Shown piece by piece: positions 2,029 to 10,603 of a DNA stretch of 64,000 nt. The DNA comes from Candidatus Binatia bacterium (GTDB taxonomy: Bacteria > Desulfobacterota > Binatia > UBA9968 > JAJDTQ01). Position 1 is the stretch's first letter. The number at the start of each line of letters is the position of its first letter. A program made the position numbers and the translations under genes. The stretch lies in assembly GCA_963666515.2 (NCBI GenBank), contig OY762897.2:1984001-2048000 (forward strand). Direction: 5' to 3'. The notes under the pieces were generated by a model that saw nothing but the letters and a program-made list of their open reading frames with translations, was not told the origin of the DNA and made no database searches.

Positions 2029-3129
2029 ATGACAACGGACCAACCTGTGCGAATTGGCGTCATCGGCGGCGGTTTCGGCGTCCAGCACCTGCAAGGTTTC
2101 GGCGTCACGGAGAACGCCGAAGTGGTGGCGTTCTGCCAGAGGACCCGGGACAAGGCGGAGGCGCTGGCCGGGAAGTTCGGCGTGCTTCACGTCTACACGG
2201 ACTACCGCGAACTCCTGGCCCACCCCGGCCTCGACGCCGTGAGCATCGTGGCGCCTCCGCACCTCCATGCGGAGATGACCGCCACGGCGCTGGAAAGGGG
2301 TCTCCACGTGCTGTGCGAAAAACCCCTGGCCATGAACGCGGCGGAGGCGGAAGCCATGCTCAAGCAGGCGGAGGCGGCCGGGCGGGTGCACATGACCGCG
2401 TTCAACCATCGTCATATCCCGGCCTTGGCCTACATGAAGGAACTGATGGACGGCGGCTACGTGGGCGGGCGGGTGCTCCACGTGGAGAGCCGCTGGTTCG
2501 GCGAGACCCGTCTCGCCCCGGACCAGACCCATTACTGGCGCCACACGCGGGAGCTTGCCGGCTTCGGTATCCTCGGCGACATCGGCGTCCATGTGGTGGA
2601 CCGCCTCCGCTGGCTGATAGGCGAGTTCGAGAGCGTATGGGGGCACGCGGATACGTTCATTCCGGAGCGAAAGGACGACCAAGGCGTTTCCCGGCCGGTT
2701 ACAGTGGACGACAACTTCACGCTGATGGCGCGTCTTGCCGGCAGCGCCTCGGCCTGCATCCGCCTGAGCGGGGTGGCCAGAAAGAGCAACTACCAGAACC
2801 TCGAGATATACGGCGATGCCGGAATGCTGCGGTTCGCTTTCGACCGCAACGTGGAGGGATGGATCCGCGGCCAGCTATGGGGCGCCCGCAGCGACACCCG
2901 CTCGCCCGAGCCGCTGGAGATTCCGGAGCGCTACACCCGTGGACTCGACGTCTCGGACCCGCAGCGCGCTCAGGGAGAGTTCATCTTCGCCGCCCTCACA
3001 CGCGTCTTCGTCGACGCGATCCGGAACGGCGCAACGACCTCACCGAGCTTCGCCGACGGCTTGGCCGCCCAGCGCGTGCTGGATGCCGCGCTCCTCTCCA
3101 GCGAAGAAGGGCGGTGGGCCACAGTGTAG
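2029..3129 (+). CDS. Gfo/Idh/MocA family oxidoreductase
   Basis: RIGVIGGG Rossmann start, HVLCEKP and GDIGVH motifs; AGGAGG RBS before ATG 2029. Confidence 0.92.
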   Translation: MTTDQPVRIGVIGGGFGVQHLQGFGVTENAEVVAFCQRTRDKAEALAGKFGVLHVYTDYRELLAHPGLDAVSIVAPPHLHAEMTATALERGLHVLCEKPLAMNAAEAEAMLKQAEAAGRVHMTAFNHRHIPALAYMKELMDGGYVGGRVLHVESRWFGETRLAPDQTHYWRHTRELAGFGILGDIGVHVVDRLRWLIGEFESVWGHADTFIPERKDDQGVSRPVTVDDNFTLMARLAGSASACIRLSGVARKSNYQNLEIYGDAGMLRFAFDRNVEGWIRGQLWGARSDTRSPEPLEIPERYTRGLDVSDPQRAQGEFIFAALTRVFVDAIRNGATTSPSFADGLAAQRVLDAALLSSEEGRWATV

Positions 3130-3237
3130 AACCACTCCAGGAACGTCCGGTCAATGGGCCTCGTCATTTGAAGGTGCCATGAATTGAGTTGGTTGGTTAA
3201 GGTCAAGCGGTGAGGTGGGCGGCAAAGGAAAACCCTG

Positions 3238-4698
3238 ATGCGCAAGTTCAAGCCCCTCCGGAAGGCAGGGCAGAAGCATTTCAATCGCTGGCTGTTCGTC
3301 CTCGCTATACTCGCTCTCATCCTTCTGTCGGGTTTGGGGGGTTGCGACCGGCGTGACGACCAGCAGGACGAACCAAAACTCGCCTATCATCAACAACTTG
3401 AAGCTTTCTCCGCTCGATTGGGTGCGTTGGAGGACGCCGTCCAGCGGCAGGAAGGCGCCCTTCAGCGGCAATCGACTGTCCTGCAACAGATACTTGATAA
3501 CGTTTCCCCGGCCAGGATGTCTCCGGAGTGGGAAAGTCGCCTCAGTCAACTCGAAGATCAAGTAAGCCACGACAGCCGGTGGCCAAAGGATACCGGCGAG
3601 GCCGGACGCTTCCTCGAACAGGTATCCGAACTCGTCGCGAGACTACCGGCTCAGGCCGAGCCGCACTACCTCCCACGGCTCTCGCCGGTCCGATGGGCCG
3701 CGATGGCATTCGTCAACCTCAATCACCCAACGGATACCGGCCAGACGTCTGACCGGCTCGATCAACTTGTTGACGAGTTGCGCGACCTGACTGACGCCAA
3801 GCCTGCGGGAGGCGCTGACGCACTGGCTCATGCATTGGGGGAGCGCGCCACCGAACTGGCTGGCGAGGCTGCCAAGCGACGAGTCACAGCGGCTGTTGCA
3901 CAGGCGGATCGATACGTGGAAGGCAGCCCAGGAACTGCGGCAGATGTTGCCAGGCTGTACGAGCTTTTGGAATTGTACGTGGCAGGCCATGAGACGGGCA
4001 GCATCGATGTCGATGTCCCGGCCCTGCGGACGAAGCTGAAGAAGCTGTACAAGGAGATGCTGCGACGCCAAGCCGTTAAGCAGGCGGCCACCCTGCACGA
4101 CCGATGGAAGACCGCACAGAAACTGGAGCGCCATCAACCCGCAGTCTACGAAGCCTCCACCAGGATGCTGCTTCAACAGGTGGTGTCGGCCCGGACTGCG
4201 CTCATCCTGGAGGGTGTCACGGCTTCGGTCCATGAGGAATTGGAGAGGGAACTGCGTCGTGCCGCAAGGACGCTTGAAATCAAAGCGGCTGAACGGGCCG
4301 AAATACGCCAAGCCAAGGCCTTGCGGTCGTATCAGCGCTGGGCGCTTTCCGAGATAAAGAACTTTGAGTATGCGCTTCAGAGGATTTCCAACAAGGTCAC
4401 CGAAGCCAAATCATGGCTGGATTCTGTCAACCCCTTGCGGTGGGACGACCCCGACTACCGGGAACACCGGGACTACACGGAAACCGGACAGTATGAAGAA
4501 GTTCAACAAGCCATCATCCATCATCTCCTGCCCATCAAACTCGCATTGCTGGATCTGCCCGTTCACGAACACTACCAGCAGGCATTTCAAACAGGCTGGC
4601 GGAAGTTGGACGGACGCGACGATCAGACAGAGGTGGCGAAAGCCTCGGCGTTAGCCGAAAAGAAATCGTTGCGTGCATTTCTGGAGGATGGATCGTGA
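3238..4698 (+). CDS. Unknown helical/coiled-coil lipoprotein (cassette gene A1)
   Basis: Basic N-region, hydrophobic stretch and lipobox-like LGG-C; paralog of 6002-7330; stop overlaps GTG start of next gene. Confidence 0.75.
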   Translation: MRKFKPLRKAGQKHFNRWLFVLAILALILLSGLGGCDRRDDQQDEPKLAYHQQLEAFSARLGALEDAVQRQEGALQRQSTVLQQILDNVSPARMSPEWESRLSQLEDQVSHDSRWPKDTGEAGRFLEQVSELVARLPAQAEPHYLPRLSPVRWAAMAFVNLNHPTDTGQTSDRLDQLVDELRDLTDAKPAGGADALAHALGERATELAGEAAKRRVTAAVAQADRYVEGSPGTAADVARLYELLELYVAGHETGSIDVDVPALRTKLKKLYKEMLRRQAVKQAATLHDRWKTAQKLERHQPAVYEASTRMLLQQVVSARTALILEGVTASVHEELERELRRAARTLEIKAAERAEIRQAKALRSYQRWALSEIKNFEYALQRISNKVTEAKSWLDSVNPLRWDDPDYREHRDYTETGQYEEVQQAIIHHLLPIKLALLDLPVHEHYQQAFQTGWRKLDGRDDQTEVAKASALAEKKSLRAFLEDGS

Positions 4699-5918
4699 GC
4701 GACCGTCAATCTGCGGAGACTACGAGCGGGACGGTGGCTTCCAACGTCGTGCCGGCTCGTGCCGTTGCCCGGTATCCCGACATGCTTCTGACGCCGCAGG
4801 AGCAGGCTGCACGGCTTCAAGGGTTGGCTGGTCCGGAAATGGCGCAAAAGCTCTTTCCGCCTACTGCAGATTCGATCACGACAAAGCTCCTTCATGGACT
4901 CAGCCACCAGCGCGAACATAGCGGCACACTAACGTATGGCCTGAATGGTCCAACAGGGCTGCCGAGCACAGCGCAAAAATTGGCCGTTCAGCGGCGTCGA
5001 TCTGGCGCGGCTGCAGCAGGAACTCTTCGACTCGATGATAAGCTATGTGATCTGACACCGGACGATGAACGAAAACACCCAACGTCGCAAGGCTGGACGG
5101 TTCTCGACCTTGCAGCAAGACTTCAATCGGGTTGGGATACGTACCAACGGGCCACGGCTGCCTGGTCAATGTTCCGTGATCCTACCTGGACGGAAATCTT
5201 AGTATCCCATGTGCAGCAGCCAACCATTACGTTTGTCCAGCAATTCTTGCCGGGAGCCCGCAACGAACCGTTCAGCGATACACTTTCACAGGCCCTGCCG
5301 GTTGCTGGCCTTGGGGGAGTGTTGCTCTTGGGTTTGGAAACGTACCAAGAGGCTCGCAGAGCCAAGTCAATGTTCCGTGACCCTACCCTGGCAGGAAGTG
5401 CTCTGCACTATATGCAGGCGGGTATGGCGCTCAGCAGGGCAGCACAGACAGGAACTGTCGGCATAAATTCACTTGCTCAATTGAATATTATGACCTTCTC
5501 CACCTGGGAAGGGCTTGCCCGGGTTGCCGAGCAAGCATTTATACCTGTCGTAGCCGTTGGGGAGCTATTGCGCGTGGGTATCGCATACGACCAACATCGT
5601 TTGGGCCGCATCAGTCTGCGTGATTTCCGCCGTAGCAGCGCCGGACTGGGAATTTTGGTCGTGTTCGTGACCAGCGGCGCCGCGGCTGGCGCATTGGCTG
5701 GTTTCTTGCCTGGCGGGATCACTGCAGCCCCCGGCGCCATGGTTGGCGCCAAAATCGGCGGCCTTGCAGCCATACCCTTTCAATTTTTCGGGGACCGGGT
5801 AGCCGATTACTGGCACGGGTGGCGCGAGCGGAAGTTTAATGAAAAACAGCGGCGCCTCATCAACGCGGCAGTTGAAACATTCTACGGTTTTGAAGGCCGT
5901 CACGGCGTTGAACACTGA
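4695..5918 (+). CDS. Unknown membrane protein with C-terminal glycine-zipper helices (cassette gene B1, lacks nuclease domain)
   Basis: Shares LTPxEQAARLxGLAxPxxAQKLFP and the C-terminal hydrophobic GAxxG region with 7327-8712; GTGA overlap with A1. Confidence 0.7.
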   Translation: MSDRQSAETTSGTVASNVVPARAVARYPDMLLTPQEQAARLQGLAGPEMAQKLFPPTADSITTKLLHGLSHQREHSGTLTYGLNGPTGLPSTAQKLAVQRRRSGAAAAGTLRLDDKLCDLTPDDERKHPTSQGWTVLDLAARLQSGWDTYQRATAAWSMFRDPTWTEILVSHVQQPTITFVQQFLPGARNEPFSDTLSQALPVAGLGGVLLLGLETYQEARRAKSMFRDPTLAGSALHYMQAGMALSRAAQTGTVGINSLAQLNIMTFSTWEGLARVAEQAFIPVVAVGELLRVGIAYDQHRLGRISLRDFRRSSAGLGILVVFVTSGAAAGALAGFLPGGITAAPGAMVGAKIGGLAAIPFQFFGDRVADYWHGWRERKFNEKQRRLINAAVETFYGFEGRHGVEH

Positions 5919-6001
5919 CGGCCGGTGGCGTTCCACGAGAGGCCCGAGCGGGCTGATGCCGTATCCGTATCAAAGGCCTTCTACAGCCGGGAGATTCTTC
6001 C

Positions 6002-7330
6002 ATGTTCAAGATTTTTTGTATCGGGCACAATCAGCAACTGGAAGCCCTCACCACCCGATTAGGTGCACTTGAGAACGCCGTTCAGCAGCAGGAAAGCGTT
6101 CTTCAGGAGCAGTCGACCGTTCTACGACAGATACTTGACAACGTTTCCCCAGCCAGGATTCCTCCAGAGTGGGAGGGCCGCCTCAAGAAACTCCAGGATC
6201 AGATGCGCAACGTCAGCCTGTGGCCAAAGGACGCTGACGAAGCCGGGCGCTTCCTCGCACAGGCATCCGAACTCGTCGCCGATCTACCGGCTCGGGCCGA
6301 GCCGCAGTACCTGCCGCAGCTCTCGCCGGTCCGATGGGCCGCGATGGCATTCGACCGTCTCAACTACCCGGTGGATACCGTCCGGACACCTGACCAACTC
6401 GATCAACTTGTTGGCGAACTGCGCGCCTTGGCTGACGCCAAGCCGGACGGCAGCGCTGAGGCATTGGTTCAGGCGTTAGGTGAGCGCGCTGCCGAACTGG
6501 CCGGCGAGGCTACCGAGCGGCGAATCACAGAAGCTGTTGGACAGGCGGAGCGATACGTGGAAGGCAACCCAGGCGTCGCGGCAGAAATTGCCAAGCTCTA
6601 CGAGTTTCTGACGCTTTACGAGGCCGGCCATAAACGGGACGGGGCCGATGTCGATATCCCGGCGCTACGACAGAGGCTATATAAGGAAATGCTGCGACGC
6701 CAAGCCGTTGAGCAGGCAGTCATCCTGCACGACCGATGGAAGATTGCACGGAAATTGGAACACCATCAACCCGCAGTTTACGAAGCATCCACCAGGATGC
6801 TGCTGCAACAGGTGGTGTCGGCACGAGTCGCGCTCATTCTGGAAGGCGTTACCAGTCCGGTCCATGACGGGTTGGAGAGGGAACTGCGTAGCGCTGTGGC
6901 CACGATCGAAATCTACGAAACCCAACGGGCCAAAAAGCGCCAAGGCCGCGCGGTGCGCGCATATCAGCTTTGGGCGCTTTCAGCGATCAAGAAGTTCGAG
7001 GATACGGTTCAGGGGATATCCGACAAGGCCGCTGAGGCCAACTCGTGGCTGGACTCCGCCAAGCCTTGGCGGTGGGATGACCCCGACTACCGGCAAAACC
7101 GGAAGTACATCGAAGACGAGCAGTATCGAGAAGTCCGGCAAGCGATGATCAACCATCTCTTGCCCGTCAACCTCGCGTTGCTGGACCTGCCCGTTCACGA
7201 ACGCTACCAGCAAGCCTTTCAAGCGGGCTGGCAGAAGTTGGACGGGCGCGGCGATCAGACAGAAGTGGCGAAAGCCGCAGCGGTGGCGGAGAAGATATCG
7301 TTACAGGAGTATCTGGAGGATGGATCGTGA
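6002..7330 (+). CDS. Paralog of A1 lacking the lipoprotein signal (cassette gene A2)
   Basis: Colinear with A1 from QQLEA to LEDGS* (42/58 identities in the first aligned block); no hydrophobic N-terminus. Confidence 0.75.
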   Translation: MFKIFCIGHNQQLEALTTRLGALENAVQQQESVLQEQSTVLRQILDNVSPARIPPEWEGRLKKLQDQMRNVSLWPKDADEAGRFLAQASELVADLPARAEPQYLPQLSPVRWAAMAFDRLNYPVDTVRTPDQLDQLVGELRALADAKPDGSAEALVQALGERAAELAGEATERRITEAVGQAERYVEGNPGVAAEIAKLYEFLTLYEAGHKRDGADVDIPALRQRLYKEMLRRQAVEQAVILHDRWKIARKLEHHQPAVYEASTRMLLQQVVSARVALILEGVTSPVHDGLERELRSAVATIEIYETQRAKKRQGRAVRAYQLWALSAIKKFEDTVQGISDKAAEANSWLDSAKPWRWDDPDYRQNRKYIEDEQYREVRQAMINHLLPVNLALLDLPVHERYQQAFQAGWQKLDGRGDQTEVAKAAAVAEKISLQEYLEDGS

Positions 7331-8712
7331 GAATCCGTCGGATGATCGGTGTGGCTGTGTTCGCAGTGGCGGCGACGGCTCTCCATGCCGTGCCGACCCG
7401 TTCTGCCGTCTCGTCTCTGGACCTTCCCCTGACGCCGCGGGAACAGGCTGCGAGGCTTTGGGGGTTGGCCACGCCGGACACGGCGCAAAAGCTCTTTCCA
7501 TCTACGACAGGCGAGCGCTACTTCTATTTTCAACGCGACTATCGACGCGAATATGGCGACGCACGACCGTATGATCGAGCACGTCTGGCTGAGAGACTGG
7601 GGGAACAGGGTCGCGCCAGATTTGCCGCGGAGCGCGGTTGGACAAAGCTGCTCGGCTCACGGAGCCGCGGCATCCGCCAGGGACCGGACTCCGTGTATTG
7701 GGACCCCCGGTCGGGTCTCGTCCGTGTGCTTGAAGCAAAGGGAGGCAATTCCCCGCTCGGGCTCTATTACGGTTCTCCGCAGAATACGAACCACTATACA
7801 ATCCGGTCGGCCCAACGCGTCCTCGGATCGCCAATCGCCACCGAACAAGCCAAGGTGGCGTCAGCCCGCGTCGTCGTAGCCGCGCAAGAGCGTCGCCTCG
7901 CCACCGGAGTCGTAAGGACTCCTCACCTGAGGGGCAAGCCAAACGATCCCAGGATAGAGGGCCGGTGGGACCGCGTCGACGTCAGGAAGGAAGCACTCGA
8001 CGTCGAACGAGAGTTGGCCCGGGAGAATCCCCGCACTCGACAAATCTTCCGCAAAGCGCGGGCGGAGCAGTCCGCCGCGATGCTGAAATACCGAGCCGCA
8101 CAGGGCTTGGCGGTCCTCGGCTTGGCAGGCGCGGCAACATTGGGTTGGGATGCACACCGGCAGTCCGAGGTAGGCTGGCAGATGTTGAACGACCCCACCC
8201 TGGACGGGAATCTTCTGCCCTATATGCAGACAGGCGTCGCAATGGTTAGGGTCGGACAGTTAACGACCTTGGGCGTGAGTTCCTCTGCGACGTTCACACG
8301 GCTCCCAACGACGGGATGGGTCCGGGCCGCCAGCGCCGCGTTTCTGCCCGTTACGTTCGTAGTAGAGGGAATGCTGCTGACTACAGCGTATCACGAGTAC
8401 CAGTTGGGCCGCATGAGTCAACGTGGTTTCTACCATCGCGCCACGGTTGGCGCCATCGTCCCGGTGTTCAGCGCCGGCGGCGCCGTCGTCGGTGGAATAG
8501 TCGGTCTTCACGCCGGCGGAGCGGGCGCGCTACCGGGCGCCGTAGCCGGCGCGAAAATCGCCGTCATCGTAGCGATACCGTTTCAATCTGCCGCCGGCTA
8601 CTTGTCGGCGTGGTACTACCAAGACTTCGAGGCCCGTCAGCGTCGGGTCGTGAACGATGCCGTTGAAAGACACTATGGTCTTGGGGTCGGCCACCAAGCG
8701 GAGCCGCACTGA
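7327..8712 (+). CDS. Signal-peptide protein with PD-(D/E)xK nuclease-like domain and C-terminal glycine-zipper membrane region (cassette gene B2)
   Basis: MRIRRMIGVAVFAVAATALHA signal; ERLGE...GPDSVY...VLEAKGG...Q motif; C-terminal GGAVVGGIVGLHAGGAGALPGAVAGA. Confidence 0.7.
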   Translation: MRIRRMIGVAVFAVAATALHAVPTRSAVSSLDLPLTPREQAARLWGLATPDTAQKLFPSTTGERYFYFQRDYRREYGDARPYDRARLAERLGEQGRARFAAERGWTKLLGSRSRGIRQGPDSVYWDPRSGLVRVLEAKGGNSPLGLYYGSPQNTNHYTIRSAQRVLGSPIATEQAKVASARVVVAAQERRLATGVVRTPHLRGKPNDPRIEGRWDRVDVRKEALDVERELARENPRTRQIFRKARAEQSAAMLKYRAAQGLAVLGLAGAATLGWDAHRQSEVGWQMLNDPTLDGNLLPYMQTGVAMVRVGQLTTLGVSSSATFTRLPTTGWVRAASAAFLPVTFVVEGMLLTTAYHEYQLGRMSQRGFYHRATVGAIVPVFSAGGAVVGGIVGLHAGGAGALPGAVAGAKIAVIVAIPFQSAAGYLSAWYYQDFEARQRRVVNDAVERHYGLGVGHQAEPH

Positions 8713-8869
8713 TGCCCGAAGCGGGGTACGTCGCAACAGATTCCGGCCGCAACCGTGCGCCTGACCGGCGCAAGCGCCGATCAGGGAATGGGAGCAAACA
8801 AAGATGCACCCGGAACCTTTGGAGGGAGAACTATTGTGGATGTGCGTCAGGTTGGTGTCCAGGACTGGA

Positions 8870-9106
8870 TCATGCCGACTCGTCGGGTTGGTTCGGTGCT
8901 GCGGCCAAGCGCTCCTTGAGAGCGCGGAACCGCGGTTCGTCAATCCCCGTTGCCGACGTGATCACATCCCAGCTCACGCCGATTCTCAGAAAGCCTTCCA
9001 CCGCCTCTACCTTGCCGCGCTGCAAGCCTTCTTCCTTGCCCTCGGCTTTGCCTTCTGCCCGGCCTTTGGCCCAGCCTTCCTCCAGAAGTTCCTGAGCGTA
9101 TGACAT
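8870..9106 (-). CDS. Probable internally translated small Rpn C-terminal protein (RpnS-like antitoxin, 78 aa)
   Basis: Minus strand AAGGAGGAGG-AATC-ATG in frame at 9106 (MSYAQELLEEG...). Confidence 0.65.
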   Translation of the reverse strand: MSYAQELLEEGWAKGRAEGKAEGKEEGLQRGKVEAVEGFLRIGVSWDVITSATGIDEPRFRALKERLAAAPNQPDESA

Positions 9107-9871
9107 GATTCCTCCTCCTTGGCCGCCTTGATGGCGCCGTAGCGCTTCATCGAAGGCATCCGCTGCCGCTTTGTCCGGCATCGAGAACAGATAGACAGCG
9201 ATCATCCGAATATAGTCCACCGTGCCAACGGAAACCAGCGACGCCGCCAGTTTGGCAGCGATCTCCAGCGCCGCGCCTGCGTGCCGGCCAAAGGCCGCCA
9301 TCATCAGCAACTGCACAATGCGGCCCATGGGCGCACCTTCGACATCGCCGGGGTCCAGTCCCGTCTGGTCCAGCAGCAAGTGCTCGAACCGGGGCACCCA
9401 GGGCCAATCCCGAACCGCCGCGGGGAACAGATTCGCAAACTCCGTCGAGTGCTGCCAGCCGCGGGCTCCCTGGTAGAACACCAGCGGGACGACCGGTCGC
9501 AACTCCGTACGCCGGGGATCATCGCGCAGGTCTGCATCCCAGATGCGGCAGCAGTACTTCAACAGCCGGAACCGCATCCACGCATCCGGTGTCGATTGAT
9601 GCTCGAACAGCAGGTAAAGCCACAACCGGTCCTTCCCCTTCCCGTGGCCCTCCGTCTCCTTCCCGTAGCCGGCCTCGAAAAGCAGGTCGGACTCGCTCTG
9701 GCGCAGGTCATCGTCCACGAAGGTTCCCTCCACCAGCCTCAGACTGTTCCAATCGACGTTCTCGCGCAACTCCTGCGGCACCGCCGTCTGGAGCAGGCTG
9801 GCGGCTTCTGCGGCGTCGGAGAAGACCGCGCGAAACAGCCGGTCATGGGGGTGTTCGATTTCATCTGCCAT
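8870..9871 (-). CDS. Rpn family recombination-promoting nuclease/putative transposase (YhgA-like)
   Basis: HPHDRLFR, SDLLF, YLLFEHQSTPD, PVVPLVFYQG and C-terminal EGKAEGKEEG repeats. Confidence 0.93.
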   Translation of the reverse strand: MADEIEHPHDRLFRAVFSDAAEAASLLQTAVPQELRENVDWNSLRLVEGTFVDDDLRQSESDLLFEAGYGKETEGHGKGKDRLWLYLLFEHQSTPDAWMRFRLLKYCCRIWDADLRDDPRRTELRPVVPLVFYQGARGWQHSTEFANLFPAAVRDWPWVPRFEHLLLDQTGLDPGDVEGAPMGRIVQLLMMAAFGRHAGAALEIAAKLAASLVSVGTVDYIRMIAVYLFSMPDKAAADAFDEALRRHQGGQGGGIMSYAQELLEEGWAKGRAEGKAEGKEEGLQRGKVEAVEGFLRIGVSWDVITSATGIDEPRFRALKERLAAAPNQPDESA

Positions 9872-10090
9872 GAATGACCCTCCCGGACATGGACTCCATG
9901 CTTGCCAGTCCTGTCTGTCCTATAGAGAGTCATCGGCACTTCGCGCCGGAACTTGAACCCCGTTCCTGGAAATTTGTCGGATTTGGGCATTCGCCCTTCG
10001 AGTTCGTTCCGCTTCGCGAAACCGAAGGGGCGTAGATAGAGAAACTTGCGAGATGCGGGTCAAAAGCAGCCGCGCAGGGCACTCAGGCTG

Positions 10091-10603
10091 CTACAGCGGC
10101 GGAATGAAGGCGCCGAAGATGACGCCGGCGAAGAGGTCCACGGCCAGGGTTTCCTCGAAGATGAAGTAGAAGAAGCCCAACGCCAGGGCGGTGATGAAGA
10201 CCGTTCCGGGCCAGCCGATGCGGCCCTGGTAGCGCGTGAAGAGGACCGCGAACAGCAGGGTCGATATGTAGAAGCCGGAGATGAAGACCAGCACTCCGAA
10301 CACGCTGAACCAGACGAACATCCGGACGATGAGCCCCAACTCCCCGGGCTTGGGCCCTTCCTCGACGGGGGCCTCGTCCTCGGTACCCGCGGCCGAGCTC
10401 AGGACGTCTTCCAAGCTTACCTCGAAGGCGCTCATGATGGCGGGGTAGCGCTCGCCGGCCAGGCACAGCGCCGCCAGCACCACCGTCGGGAACGCCAGCA
10501 CCAGCGGGACGAAGCCCGCCATGCCGCCGTACGAGAACGACCACCCGAAGAACAGCAGCGAGGCGGCCACCAGGATGATGCCGAGAAGCACGGACCCCTT
10601 CAT
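10091..10603 (-). CDS. tctB: Tripartite tricarboxylate transporter TctB family small membrane subunit
   Basis: Small multi-TM protein; ATGA overlap with tctA stop. Confidence 0.8.
   Translation of the reverse strand: MKGSVLLGIILVAASLLFFGWSFSYGGMAGFVPLVLAFPTVVLAALCLAGERYPAIMSAFEVSLEDVLSSAAGTEDEAPVEEGPKPGELGLIVRMFVWFSVFGVLVFISGFYISTLLFAVLFTRYQGRIGWPGTVFITALALGFFYFIFEETLAVDLFAGVIFGAFIPPL

Follow-up and report, generated by a model that had tools for sequence, protein, structure and literature searches.

The 64,000-nucleotide (nt) stretch of DNA analysed here (the window; contig OY762897.2 of assembly GCA_963666515.2, Candidatus Binatia bacterium) carries a tandem duplication of a two-gene cassette, consisting of four plus-strand open reading frames (ORFs) in the order A1-B1-A2-B2 and spanning positions 3238-8712 (Table 1). 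Gene A is predicted to encode a helical lipoprotein, and gene B an exported protein that joins a nuclease-like domain to glycine-zipper helices. The outer genes A1 and B2 form the canonical pair and the inner genes B1 and A2 are derived copies. Both A/B junctions are formed by the 18-mer CTGGAGGATGGATCGTGA, which occurs exactly twice in the window (4681-4698 and 7313-7330) and in none of 100 shuffles, and the overlap of stop and start codons behind GGAGGA has the layout usual for translational coupling. The duplication is visible at the DNA level because direct repeats of 72-80% identity are spaced 2632-2641 nt apart.

At the protein level, A1 and A2 are 69% identical over 439 aligned residues, in an alignment that begins at A1 residue 48, so that A2 lacks the first 47 residues containing the signal peptide and lipobox. 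A simple account would place the left breakpoint of the tandem duplication inside A, past the signal peptide. B1 and B2 share an N-terminal block (38% identity over 97 residues, including LTPxEQAARLxGLAxPxxAQKLFP) and a C-terminal region of ~209 residues (38% identity, E-value 2e-27, ending QRRxxNxAVExxYG), and differ in their middles, most of the B2 centre being missing from B1. The region has a GC content of 0.54-0.63 over positions 3001-9000 compared with 0.64-0.68 in the flanks, with a GC content at third codon positions (GC3) of 0.57-0.69 in the four genes as against 0.80-0.95 in flanking genes, and it adjoins an Rpn/YhgA-like gene. These measurements bear out an earlier description of the stretch from sequence alone (hereafter the sequence-only reading), which had reported a tandem A-B duplication with an identical junction, A copies roughly 70% identical, B copies with a common N-terminal block and glycine-zipper C-terminus around differing middles, and a local drop in GC next to an Rpn gene. 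A scan of positions 2900-10200 for promoters and terminators gave counts no higher than expected from shuffles and is uninformative; in the same scan no plus-strand terminator was found between the four genes, except for one weak site inside B1.

Table 1. Genes of the duplicated cassette, their predicted features and the surrounding islet (positions in the window; aa, amino acids)
Feature	Position	Strand	Remarks
A1	3238-4698	+	486 aa ORF
A1 signal peptide and lipobox (LSGLGG-C36, then Asp37)	3238-3345	+	hydrophobic stretch 12-39, maximum Kyte-Doolittle (KD) value 2.41
A1/B1 junction	4681-4698	+	TGA stop overlaps GTG start, GGAGGA just 5'
B1	4695-5918	+	407 aa ORF
A2	6002-7330	+	442 aa ORF
A2/B2 junction	7313-7330	+	same 18-mer as A1/B1 junction
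B2	7327-8712	+	461 aa ORF
B2 predicted Sec-type signal peptide, residues 1-21 (...ALHA, then VPTRS)	7327-7389	+	hydrophobic stretch 3-25; cleavage site by eye
B2 predicted alpha/beta domain, residues 81-215	7567-7971	+	AlphaFold2 model, residue conservation
B2 E89	7591-7593	+	motif residue, codon checked
B2 G119-P120-D121	7681-7689	+	motif residues, codons checked
B2 E136-A-K138	7732-7740	+	motif residues, codons checked
B2 Q152	7780-7782	+	motif residue, codon checked
B2 C-terminal helical region, residues 236-450	8032-8676	+	zipper segments 331-356, 370-399, 396-429
Rpn/YhgA-like gene	8870-9871	-	Pfam Transposase_31, 7.6e-41; islet member in this genus, outside the A/B module
Accessory islet A1-B1-A2-B2-Rpn, ~7 kb	3100-10090		inserted between Gfo/Idh/MocA oxidoreductase gene and tctB

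Predicted architecture of the B and A proteins

The protein encoded by B2 is predicted to consist of a signal peptide, a PD-(D/E)xK-like domain and a helical glycine-zipper region. Its AlphaFold2 (AF2) model has a mean predicted local distance difference test score (pLDDT) of 75, mostly 77-96 over the domain, in which helices (H) and strands (E) follow one another in the order H81-102, E106-109, E122-126, E131-139, H155-167, H173-187, E191-198 and E209-215. This order fits the alpha-beta-beta-beta-alpha-beta core of PD-(D/E)xK enzymes. In the model the first helix bears E89, the second strand opens with D121 and the third carries E136-x-K138, so that all residues looked for in such a catalytic site (D...(D/E)-x-K on strands 2 and 3, an acidic residue on the first helix) are present. 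They are conserved in the family: in an alignment of 41 B proteins P120-D121 is invariant and Q-G-P-D, E-A-K-G-G and Q152 are nearly so, and among 58 diverse homologues (20-63% identity to B2) G119, E136, K138 and Q152 are invariant, E89 and D121 are kept in at least 90% and E-x-K-G-G in 56. A PD-(D/E)xK fold for residues 81-215 is likely but not proven, and B2 is a putative nuclease. In its predicted helix-strand order, the glutamate on the first helix, the (G)PD of strand 2 and the E-x-K of strand 3 the domain resembles Mrr_cat and RecB/YqaJ-type nucleases; unlike these, it sits between a Sec-type signal and glycine-zipper helices.

When 1.84 billion representative proteins were searched with a central-domain profile, 290 were recovered at E ≤ 0.001 (221 at ≤ 1e-10), nearly all of them 350-500 residues long with the domain at about residues 50-240. 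Foldseek comparisons of the B2 model against BFVD returned PD-(D/E)xK-type nucleases in 14-16 of 50 rows (RecB-like, YqaJ, Exo VIII and Cas4-like; E 0.19-1.5), and against the PDB in three of 50 (AdnA/B, lambda exonuclease and LHK-Exo; best E 0.49), neither set being significant though both lean towards such nucleases, and the structure matches from VIA-align were filled by the helical C-terminus. An Atlas feature search gave as its sole named set among 30 matches 'restriction endonuclease', with Mrr_cat on 40% of the members (score 0.92, 175 shared features). The swappable central domain that the sequence-only reading had envisaged for B gives way to a single conserved PD-(D/E)xK-like domain, found in 290 clusters and with its motif residues conserved in 58 members. 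One long protein of 2896 residues with HYR_4C repeats (P0234) also matches the domain profile, in 20 stretches (E 9.6e-27), and is probably a repeat or composition artefact.

Hydrophobic, signal-like N-terminal segments occur in 47 of the 58 diverse homologues. Behind the domain, six helices are predicted between residues 236 and 450, including the three hydrophobic glycine-rich segments listed in Table 1. Membrane-protein topology is governed by the positive-inside rule; applied by eye, it suggests that the charged stretches after residues 356 and 429 would face the cytoplasm, and that the nuclease-like domain and the residues up to about 330 would face the periplasm. Sub-threshold matches to DUF6861 and Gly-zipper models are confined to the zipper. 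For DUF6861 (PF21724) these reach 17.7 bits in B1, 16.2 in B2, 17.0 in the B protein of locus L010 and 22.9 in P0156, short of the gathering cut-off of 28, and they cover profile positions about 31-81 of 194. The glycine-rich tails of distant B proteins match glycine-rich segments of tape-measure and tail-lysin proteins in PHROGs (E 3e-11 to 1e-2), which we take as compositional.

B1 has neither a hydrophobic signal peptide nor the nuclease-like domain, retains the glycine-zipper C-terminus, and contains an internally duplicated helix with the pattern GW(D/E)xYQ...MFRDPT. Proteins of this type are rare, with four clusters found. To judge from these sequence features, B1 is a rare deletion/duplication derivative of B rather than the product of a domain swap.

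A1 is a predicted lipoprotein, as its signal peptide ends in a lipobox cysteine, Cys36, which is the sole cysteine of the protein; the call was made from sequence by inspection. The pattern L-x-G-C-D is kept in most of 43 aligned A homologues, the most distant of which have a hydrophobic anchor only. Under the enterobacterial Lol rule, an aspartate at position +2 of the lipid-modified cysteine leads to inner-membrane retention, and Asp +2 of A1 would have this meaning if the rule applies in this lineage. A2 has no signal, because its frame is open only 15 codons upstream of the ATG; its one cysteine is at residue 6, without a hydrophobic segment before it or a lipobox around it, and its orthologue in L006 likewise has no signal. 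The lipoprotein nature proposed earlier for A thus stands for A1 and falls for A2. The AF2 model of A1 (mean pLDDT 85) is all-helical, with 15 helices including a long N-terminal one at residues 46-87. Homologues of A form ~70 clusters among 5.8 billion proteins, none of them informatively named ('hypothetical' or unnamed). Fold searches with A gave generic helical matches and no specific fold, and an Atlas search with A1 residues 45-486 gave no usable match. Pore-forming HeLo identity for A was considered and rejected, as matches are sub-threshold and found in six of the 43 members (best 17.4 bits, cut-off 23.2).

Across Pfam, NCBIfam, PADLOC and PHROGs no model covers A or B of the window at meaningful scores, in agreement with the earlier statement that no named system has this layout, and the combination of signal, nuclease-like domain and glycine zipper occurs in none of the family libraries searched. 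In a literature search from which most subscription journals were absent, no exported restriction-endonuclease-fold protein with a glycine zipper was found. We therefore regard the A and B families as undescribed and the predicted cellular location of B as unusual; the general kind would be an effector of nuclease fold that shares a mobile islet with its own partner.

Mobility, gene linkage and evolution of the cassette

The flanks of the islet are syntenic with loci L006, L008, L010 and L011 of other genomes, with a molybdopterin oxidoreductase fragment and the Gfo/Idh/MocA gene (Gfo) on one side and tctB, tctA and tctC on the other. Identity to the window in these loci is 93-97% for TctA, 46-74% for A and 62-69% for B. 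Five same-genus genomes without the module carry no A, B, Rpn or YcjXF at the site; in three of these (G415, G406 and G403) the Gfo gene adjoins tctB with a gap of 120-560 bp, and in the other two Gfo is outside the compared stretch. Compared with these empty sites, the window's DNA is homologous up to about 3092-3099 and again from 10090-10092 onwards. The contents of the site vary from genome to genome, from nothing to A-B-Rpn (L008), A1-B1-A2-B2 (L006), A1-B1-A2-B2-Rpn (window) and A-YcjX-YcjF-B-Rpn (L010; in L011 a remnant of Rpn is left).

Of 27 same-genus genomes, eight carry the B domain and in the other 19 it was not found, nor was it found in 33 genomes of the order that belong to other genera or in 400 others sampled from the phylum. 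The A/B pair is nonetheless present in records titled Candidatus Entotheonella, Phycisphaera, Phycisphaeraceae and others. Because B was not found in the order and phylum samples, yet is present in these differently titled records, the patchy distribution fits horizontal spread. Patterns derived from the A and B alignments found no relative in viral contigs, and a tblastn search with B2 gave no match in plasmid or phage collections.

Linkage of the two genes is tight. The B alignment led to 12 genome loci; A is upstream of B in every one and abuts or overlaps it in eight, and L006 has the order A1-B1-A2-B2 as in the window. In L007, L009, L010 and L011 the two genes are separated by a YcjX-like (DUF463) and a YcjF-like (DUF697) gene, and in L012 the order is A-B-YcjX-YcjF with a fragment of B after it. 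Of 60 relatives, eight, all of the same genus, have the B domain and also full-length A, and 51 have neither. A 48-residue A fragment (G409:C71:2245-2388, E 7.6e-18) in a same-genus genome without the B domain is probably the relic of a lost module. The coupling of A and B that had been proposed from sequence alone is upheld by these results, both by the upstream position of A in 12 of 12 loci and by the joint presence or absence of the intact genes across the 60 relatives.

Further from the window the picture changes: hmmsearch found no A homologue in 41 metagenome loci of distant B relatives, while 36 ORFs match the B profile. Because these 41 loci contain no A homologue, A is specific to one B subfamily, the one with an extra helical region between the domain and the zipper. 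Independent occurrence of A and B, which the sequence-only reading had named as grounds for abandoning its proposal, is accordingly seen for distant B and not for the B subfamily of the window, which was not found without A among the loci and relatives searched. In one other subfamily (L047 and L053/L054) an unrelated exported helical protein of 324-364 residues overlaps the B start in the same manner as A does.

Prediction of a complex between A1 (residues 45-486) and B2 (residues 30-461) gives a score of 0.53, with 0.00 for the best of three controls, which is weak support for binding. The three runs scored 0.59, 0.00 and 0.53, with a contact agreement of at least 0% and a partner pLDDT of at least 50. 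For calibration, 116 of 157 solved complexes and 2 of 215 mismatched pairs came up to this mark; only 18 of the 157 did so with a score of 0.60 or under, as did both of the passing mismatches.

Rates of nonsynonymous (dN) and synonymous (dS) substitution were estimated by the Nei-Gojobori method with our own script. Between the window and L006, dN/dS is 0.38 for A1, 0.57 for B1, 0.37 for A2 and 0.49 for B2 at a dS of 0.31-0.37, compared with a dN/dS of 0.12-0.30 at a dS of 0.31-0.65 for four flanking genes. Between the window and L008, the values are 0.35-0.37 for A, 0.42 for B and 0.21 for Rpn, and 0.07, 0.12 and 0.23 for TctA, Gfo and TctC. From these rates, together with a dS of 0.55 between the paralogues A1 and A2, it follows that the duplication of the cassette predates the split between the window's genome and L006. 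All four genes, the inner copies included, are under purifying selection that is much weaker than in their neighbours. These rates are compatible with relaxed constraint and with a mixture of constraint and diversifying selection alike.

The low GC3, the patchy distribution and the degenerate B1 and A2 could also be those of decaying selfish or functionless mobile-element leftovers whose frames are open by chance, and degraded copies do occur elsewhere (the fragmented cassette of L009, the B fragment of L012 and the A fragment of G409). We consider this account very improbable, since all four genes are intact in two genomes at a dS of 0.31-0.37 and a dN/dS of 0.37-0.57, the motif residues are invariant across 58 homologues, and the order and coupling of A and B are conserved in records titled as different phyla.

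Gene neighbourhoods and candidate roles of the module

Neighbouring genes were surveyed with Pfam at E ≤ 1e-5 over 38 ORFs at A/B loci and 86 ORFs at 29 non-identical metagenome loci of distant B. The A/B loci lie beside two tyrosine integrases (L012), beside phage capsid and AAA_25/DUF669 genes (L015), and beside a SocA antitoxin, two DDE transposases and a Type ISP restriction-modification enzyme (L017). Genes 3' of B differ between loci and include Rpn, ferritin, transposase and YcjX. Distant B proteins also begin with Sec-type signal peptides. A large superfamily 1 (SF1) helicase follows distant B by 16-173 bp in L029/L039 and L037 and matches MkoA in PADLOC (5.9e-98 and 4.1e-94), and in L053 a 1498-residue protein 3' of B has a weak match to LmuB (7.6e-6). 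Other distant B genes have a NB-ARC/TPR protein, Cas2, VWA proteins, integrases or a PLD domain nearby. The B family is thus repeatedly placed among defence and mobile genes, which is association and not proof. With these neighbours, the empty sites and the dN/dS values, the cassette has the behaviour of a conflict locus that is mobile and evolves fast, which is in line with the sequence-only reading.

Our preferred reading, held with slightly less than even confidence, is that the cassette is an envelope-located, nuclease-type effector module of a conflict system with A as partner. In this reading two translationally coupled genes, duplicated in tandem long ago, would make up a module residing in a 7-kb horizontally mobile islet. 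B would be exported via its Sec-type signal and would carry a PD-(D/E)xK domain with a complete set of catalytic-type residues, tethered in an envelope membrane by the glycine-zipper helices so that the nuclease-like domain is periplasmic. A, as an all-helical lipoprotein, would be the cognate periplasmic partner that holds, gates or neutralises B, and B may act in defence against phage or foreign DNA or in a related function, including conflict with competitors. The derived inner copies B1 and A2, kept under purifying selection, may act as modulators. The data show the structure of the genes, their linkage and conservation, the mobility of the islet and the rates of evolution; the export of B, its topology and nuclease activity, its binding to A and the part that the module plays in the cell are inferred.

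Several observations weigh against this reading. The chief weakness is that an exported nuclease would have no obvious DNA substrate in the periplasm, and the MkoA-like helicases and other defence-type neighbours belong to the cytoplasm. The B domain has no significant link to known nuclease families by sequence, profile or structure: Pfam returned no nuclease family for 11 B-domain sequences at E ≤ 10, the best match of a PDB hmmsearch with the B domain is an unrelated protein (E 0.73), and identity of the domain with Mrr_cat was rejected after hhalign against a 30-sequence Mrr_cat alignment (probability 0.9%, though E-x-K pairs with Q-x-K). PADLOC has no family for A1, B1, A2 or B2 at E ≤ 1, nor for A and B of L010 and three distant B proteins at E ≤ 0.001. 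The neighbour evidence is associative, much of it coming from distant B relatives without A; the A1-B2 complex score is weak, with one of three runs at 0.00; and a dN/dS below 1 in the A/B genes is no sign of positive selection. Finally, YcjX (DUF463, E 8.8e-28 to 1.3e-34) and YcjF (DUF697) genes in five of the 12 A/B loci and a divergent sigma-54 activator that precedes distant B by about 430-495 bp at three distinct loci (L029/L039, L033 and L037) fit a stress-response role as well.

The YcjX/YcjF and activator genes are the core of an envelope-stress or membrane-maintenance account, in which A and B would work with YcjX/YcjF-type proteins in a Psp-like response to membrane damage and the B domain would bind or process instead of serving as a weapon. 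That ycjXF accompany psp envelope-stress operons is reported in the available text of PMC9239133, the two genes lie inside or directly after the A/B pair in the loci listed above, and A and B are both predicted to be envelope-located. We nevertheless place this account well on the unlikely side. Its main weakness lies in the lack of any DUF463 or DUF697 match in the window's genome (98.35% complete); in addition, the module is accessory and was not found in 19 of 27 same-genus genomes, its foreign-like GC3 and elevated dN/dS would be unusual for a housekeeping stress system, and the strictly conserved catalytic-type residues argue for an enzyme. Homology of A or B to YcjF was also considered and rejected (hhalign probability 3% and 0.4%). 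YcjX/YcjF, a P-loop GTPase and a membrane protein, thus recur in or beside the A/B module, and they differ from it in having no counterpart in the window's genome and no detected homology to A or B. The papers found on DUF463/DUF697 do not appear to concern such an A/B module.

An interbacterial toxin-immunity pair of bacteriocin-like type is a further, unlikely possibility, ranked highest among the rivals. B would be released or presented at the surface, its zipper would insert into the membrane of a competitor and the nuclease would kill, A would serve as periplasmic immunity lipoprotein, and B1 and A2 would be orphan or decayed modules of the sort found at toxin loci. The Sec-type signal and glycine zipper of B, the tight linkage and fast evolution of A and B, the tandem and partly degenerate copies and the complex score (0.53, best control 0.00, albeit weak) are all as such a pair would have them. 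So are the sub-threshold DUF6861 matches of B members (16-23 bits, cut-off 28), as DUF6861 is described in the available text of a preprint as a membrane domain of glycine-zipper type that is found joined to several toxin domains (bioRxiv 10.1101/2022.08.23.504947). B shares with these proteins a zipper membrane segment joined to an enzyme-type domain; unlike them, it has the zipper at the C-terminus and an enzyme domain, N-terminal to it, that is invariant in kind, and its partner is upstream. The toxin-like domain is not variable, being conserved in 290 clusters, A precedes B and no conserved gene follows B, and with no A at any of 41 distant B loci most family members would be without this immunity. 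No secretion-system or lysis genes occur among the 38 and 86 neighbour ORFs, within a few kb of the genes, and a lipoprotein of 440 residues is, in our judgement, large for an immunity protein. The polymorphic-toxin likeness drawn by the sequence-only reading fails on the same grounds, namely the lack of a variable tip, of a conserved downstream immunity gene and of secretion genes among the scanned neighbours. Overall, the parts of that reading concerning coupling, zipper and novelty are supported, and those concerning a swappable domain and a polymorphic toxin are not.

Pairs of an envelope enzyme and a dedicated partner are known in other settings, among them periplasmic effector-immunity lipoprotein pairs and nuclease-inhibitor pairs of the NucA/Nin type, the latter being the membrane nuclease of Bacillus subtilis and its inhibitor. 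A and B resemble both in being tightly linked on the same transcript, as predicted from their layout, and differ in having no sequence or fold relation to them and in the size of A (about 440 mature residues) and its place as first gene in the operon. By analogy with NucA/Nin, B could be an extracytoplasmic nuclease for DNA uptake or for scavenging of extracellular DNA, with A as inhibitor or anchor, a role in keeping with the predicted export and membrane tethering of the nuclease-like domain and with the co-translation of a partner of its own. We regard this as quite improbable given the absence of competence or uptake genes among the scanned neighbours, the patchy, island-like distribution and fast evolution of the module, and the defence and mobile-element genes that surround it.

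The effector reading can also be put in a bolder form, to which we give little credence. B would then found an undescribed family of periplasm-facing enzymes of restriction-endonuclease fold ('periplasmic restriction') that, within the envelope, destroy incoming nucleic acid or answer a breach of it, with A as gate or inhibitor, the YcjX GTPase and YcjF coupling the module to the cytoplasm in some genomes, and B1 and A2 as regulators on the cytoplasmic side. If B is an active nuclease outside the cytoplasm, the restriction-endonuclease fold would be in use in the bacterial envelope, a use that we did not find described. On the same condition, B would also add a defence-island or toxin component and its own partner family that current family libraries have missed, comprising ~290 B clusters (at 50% identity) and ~70 A clusters without a Pfam, NCBIfam, PADLOC or PHROGs model. 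The recurrence of YcjX/YcjF inside the module offers a practical way into the study of two widespread but functionally uncharacterised proteins, and filled and empty sites within one genus provide a clean natural experiment on gain, loss and duplication of a module.

The distant B genes have associations of their own. In L029:3782-11292 and L037:3636-10816, distant B lies between the sigma-54 activator and the MkoA-like helicase, and this may be a separate, undescribed defence-type operon. Mokosh systems pair an MkoA helicase with a nuclease, and their proteins are cytoplasmic. The likeness consists in the position of distant B 16-173 bp upstream of an MkoA-matching helicase at two distinct metagenome loci, and it ends there, as the window has no such helicase and B is predicted to be exported and is not a PLD nuclease. 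In L047:2087-9533 and L053:298-7421, distant B is followed by a protein of 1500-1700 residues without a Pfam family.

Cassettes with YcjX/YcjF also vary among themselves. L009 (a 37-kb contig) and L007 (a chromosome) bear the same isolate label and both have an A-YcjX-YcjF-B cassette; the YcjX/YcjF matches of L009 are split over several frames, which suggests a degraded second copy. In L010 the YcjX-like gene has an in-frame TAA (5343-5345) at a position where L007 and L011 read glutamine (CAA), probably a pseudogene or an assembly error of that one record. L012:3798-12655 is at a different genomic site and consists of two tyrosine integrases, then A-B-YcjX-YcjF and, as a fragment, residues 1-138 of another B; its YcjX/YcjF genes have a GC3 of 0.68-0.72, low like that of A and B.

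In L008 and L010, B is followed by Rpn copies 88-90% identical to that of the window; L011 keeps a remnant, and from L006 the gene is missing as a clean indel of ~1.3 kb. Rpn was not seen in the A/B loci of other phyla among the 12 loci. Its dN/dS across L008 and L010 is 0.18-0.21, making it far more conserved than the A/B genes. One sequencing run labelled sponge metagenome contains a fraction of 0.20 of the words, from which we draw no conclusion on habitat. On the left side of the islet, between the molybdopterin oxidoreductase fragment and Gfo, the window has a fatty-acid-desaturase-like ORF (963-1955) in place of which L006 has a gene of major facilitator superfamily (MFS) type; in five other genomes of the genus, matches extend over just the first ~30 codons of the ORF, and the left flank is therefore also variable.

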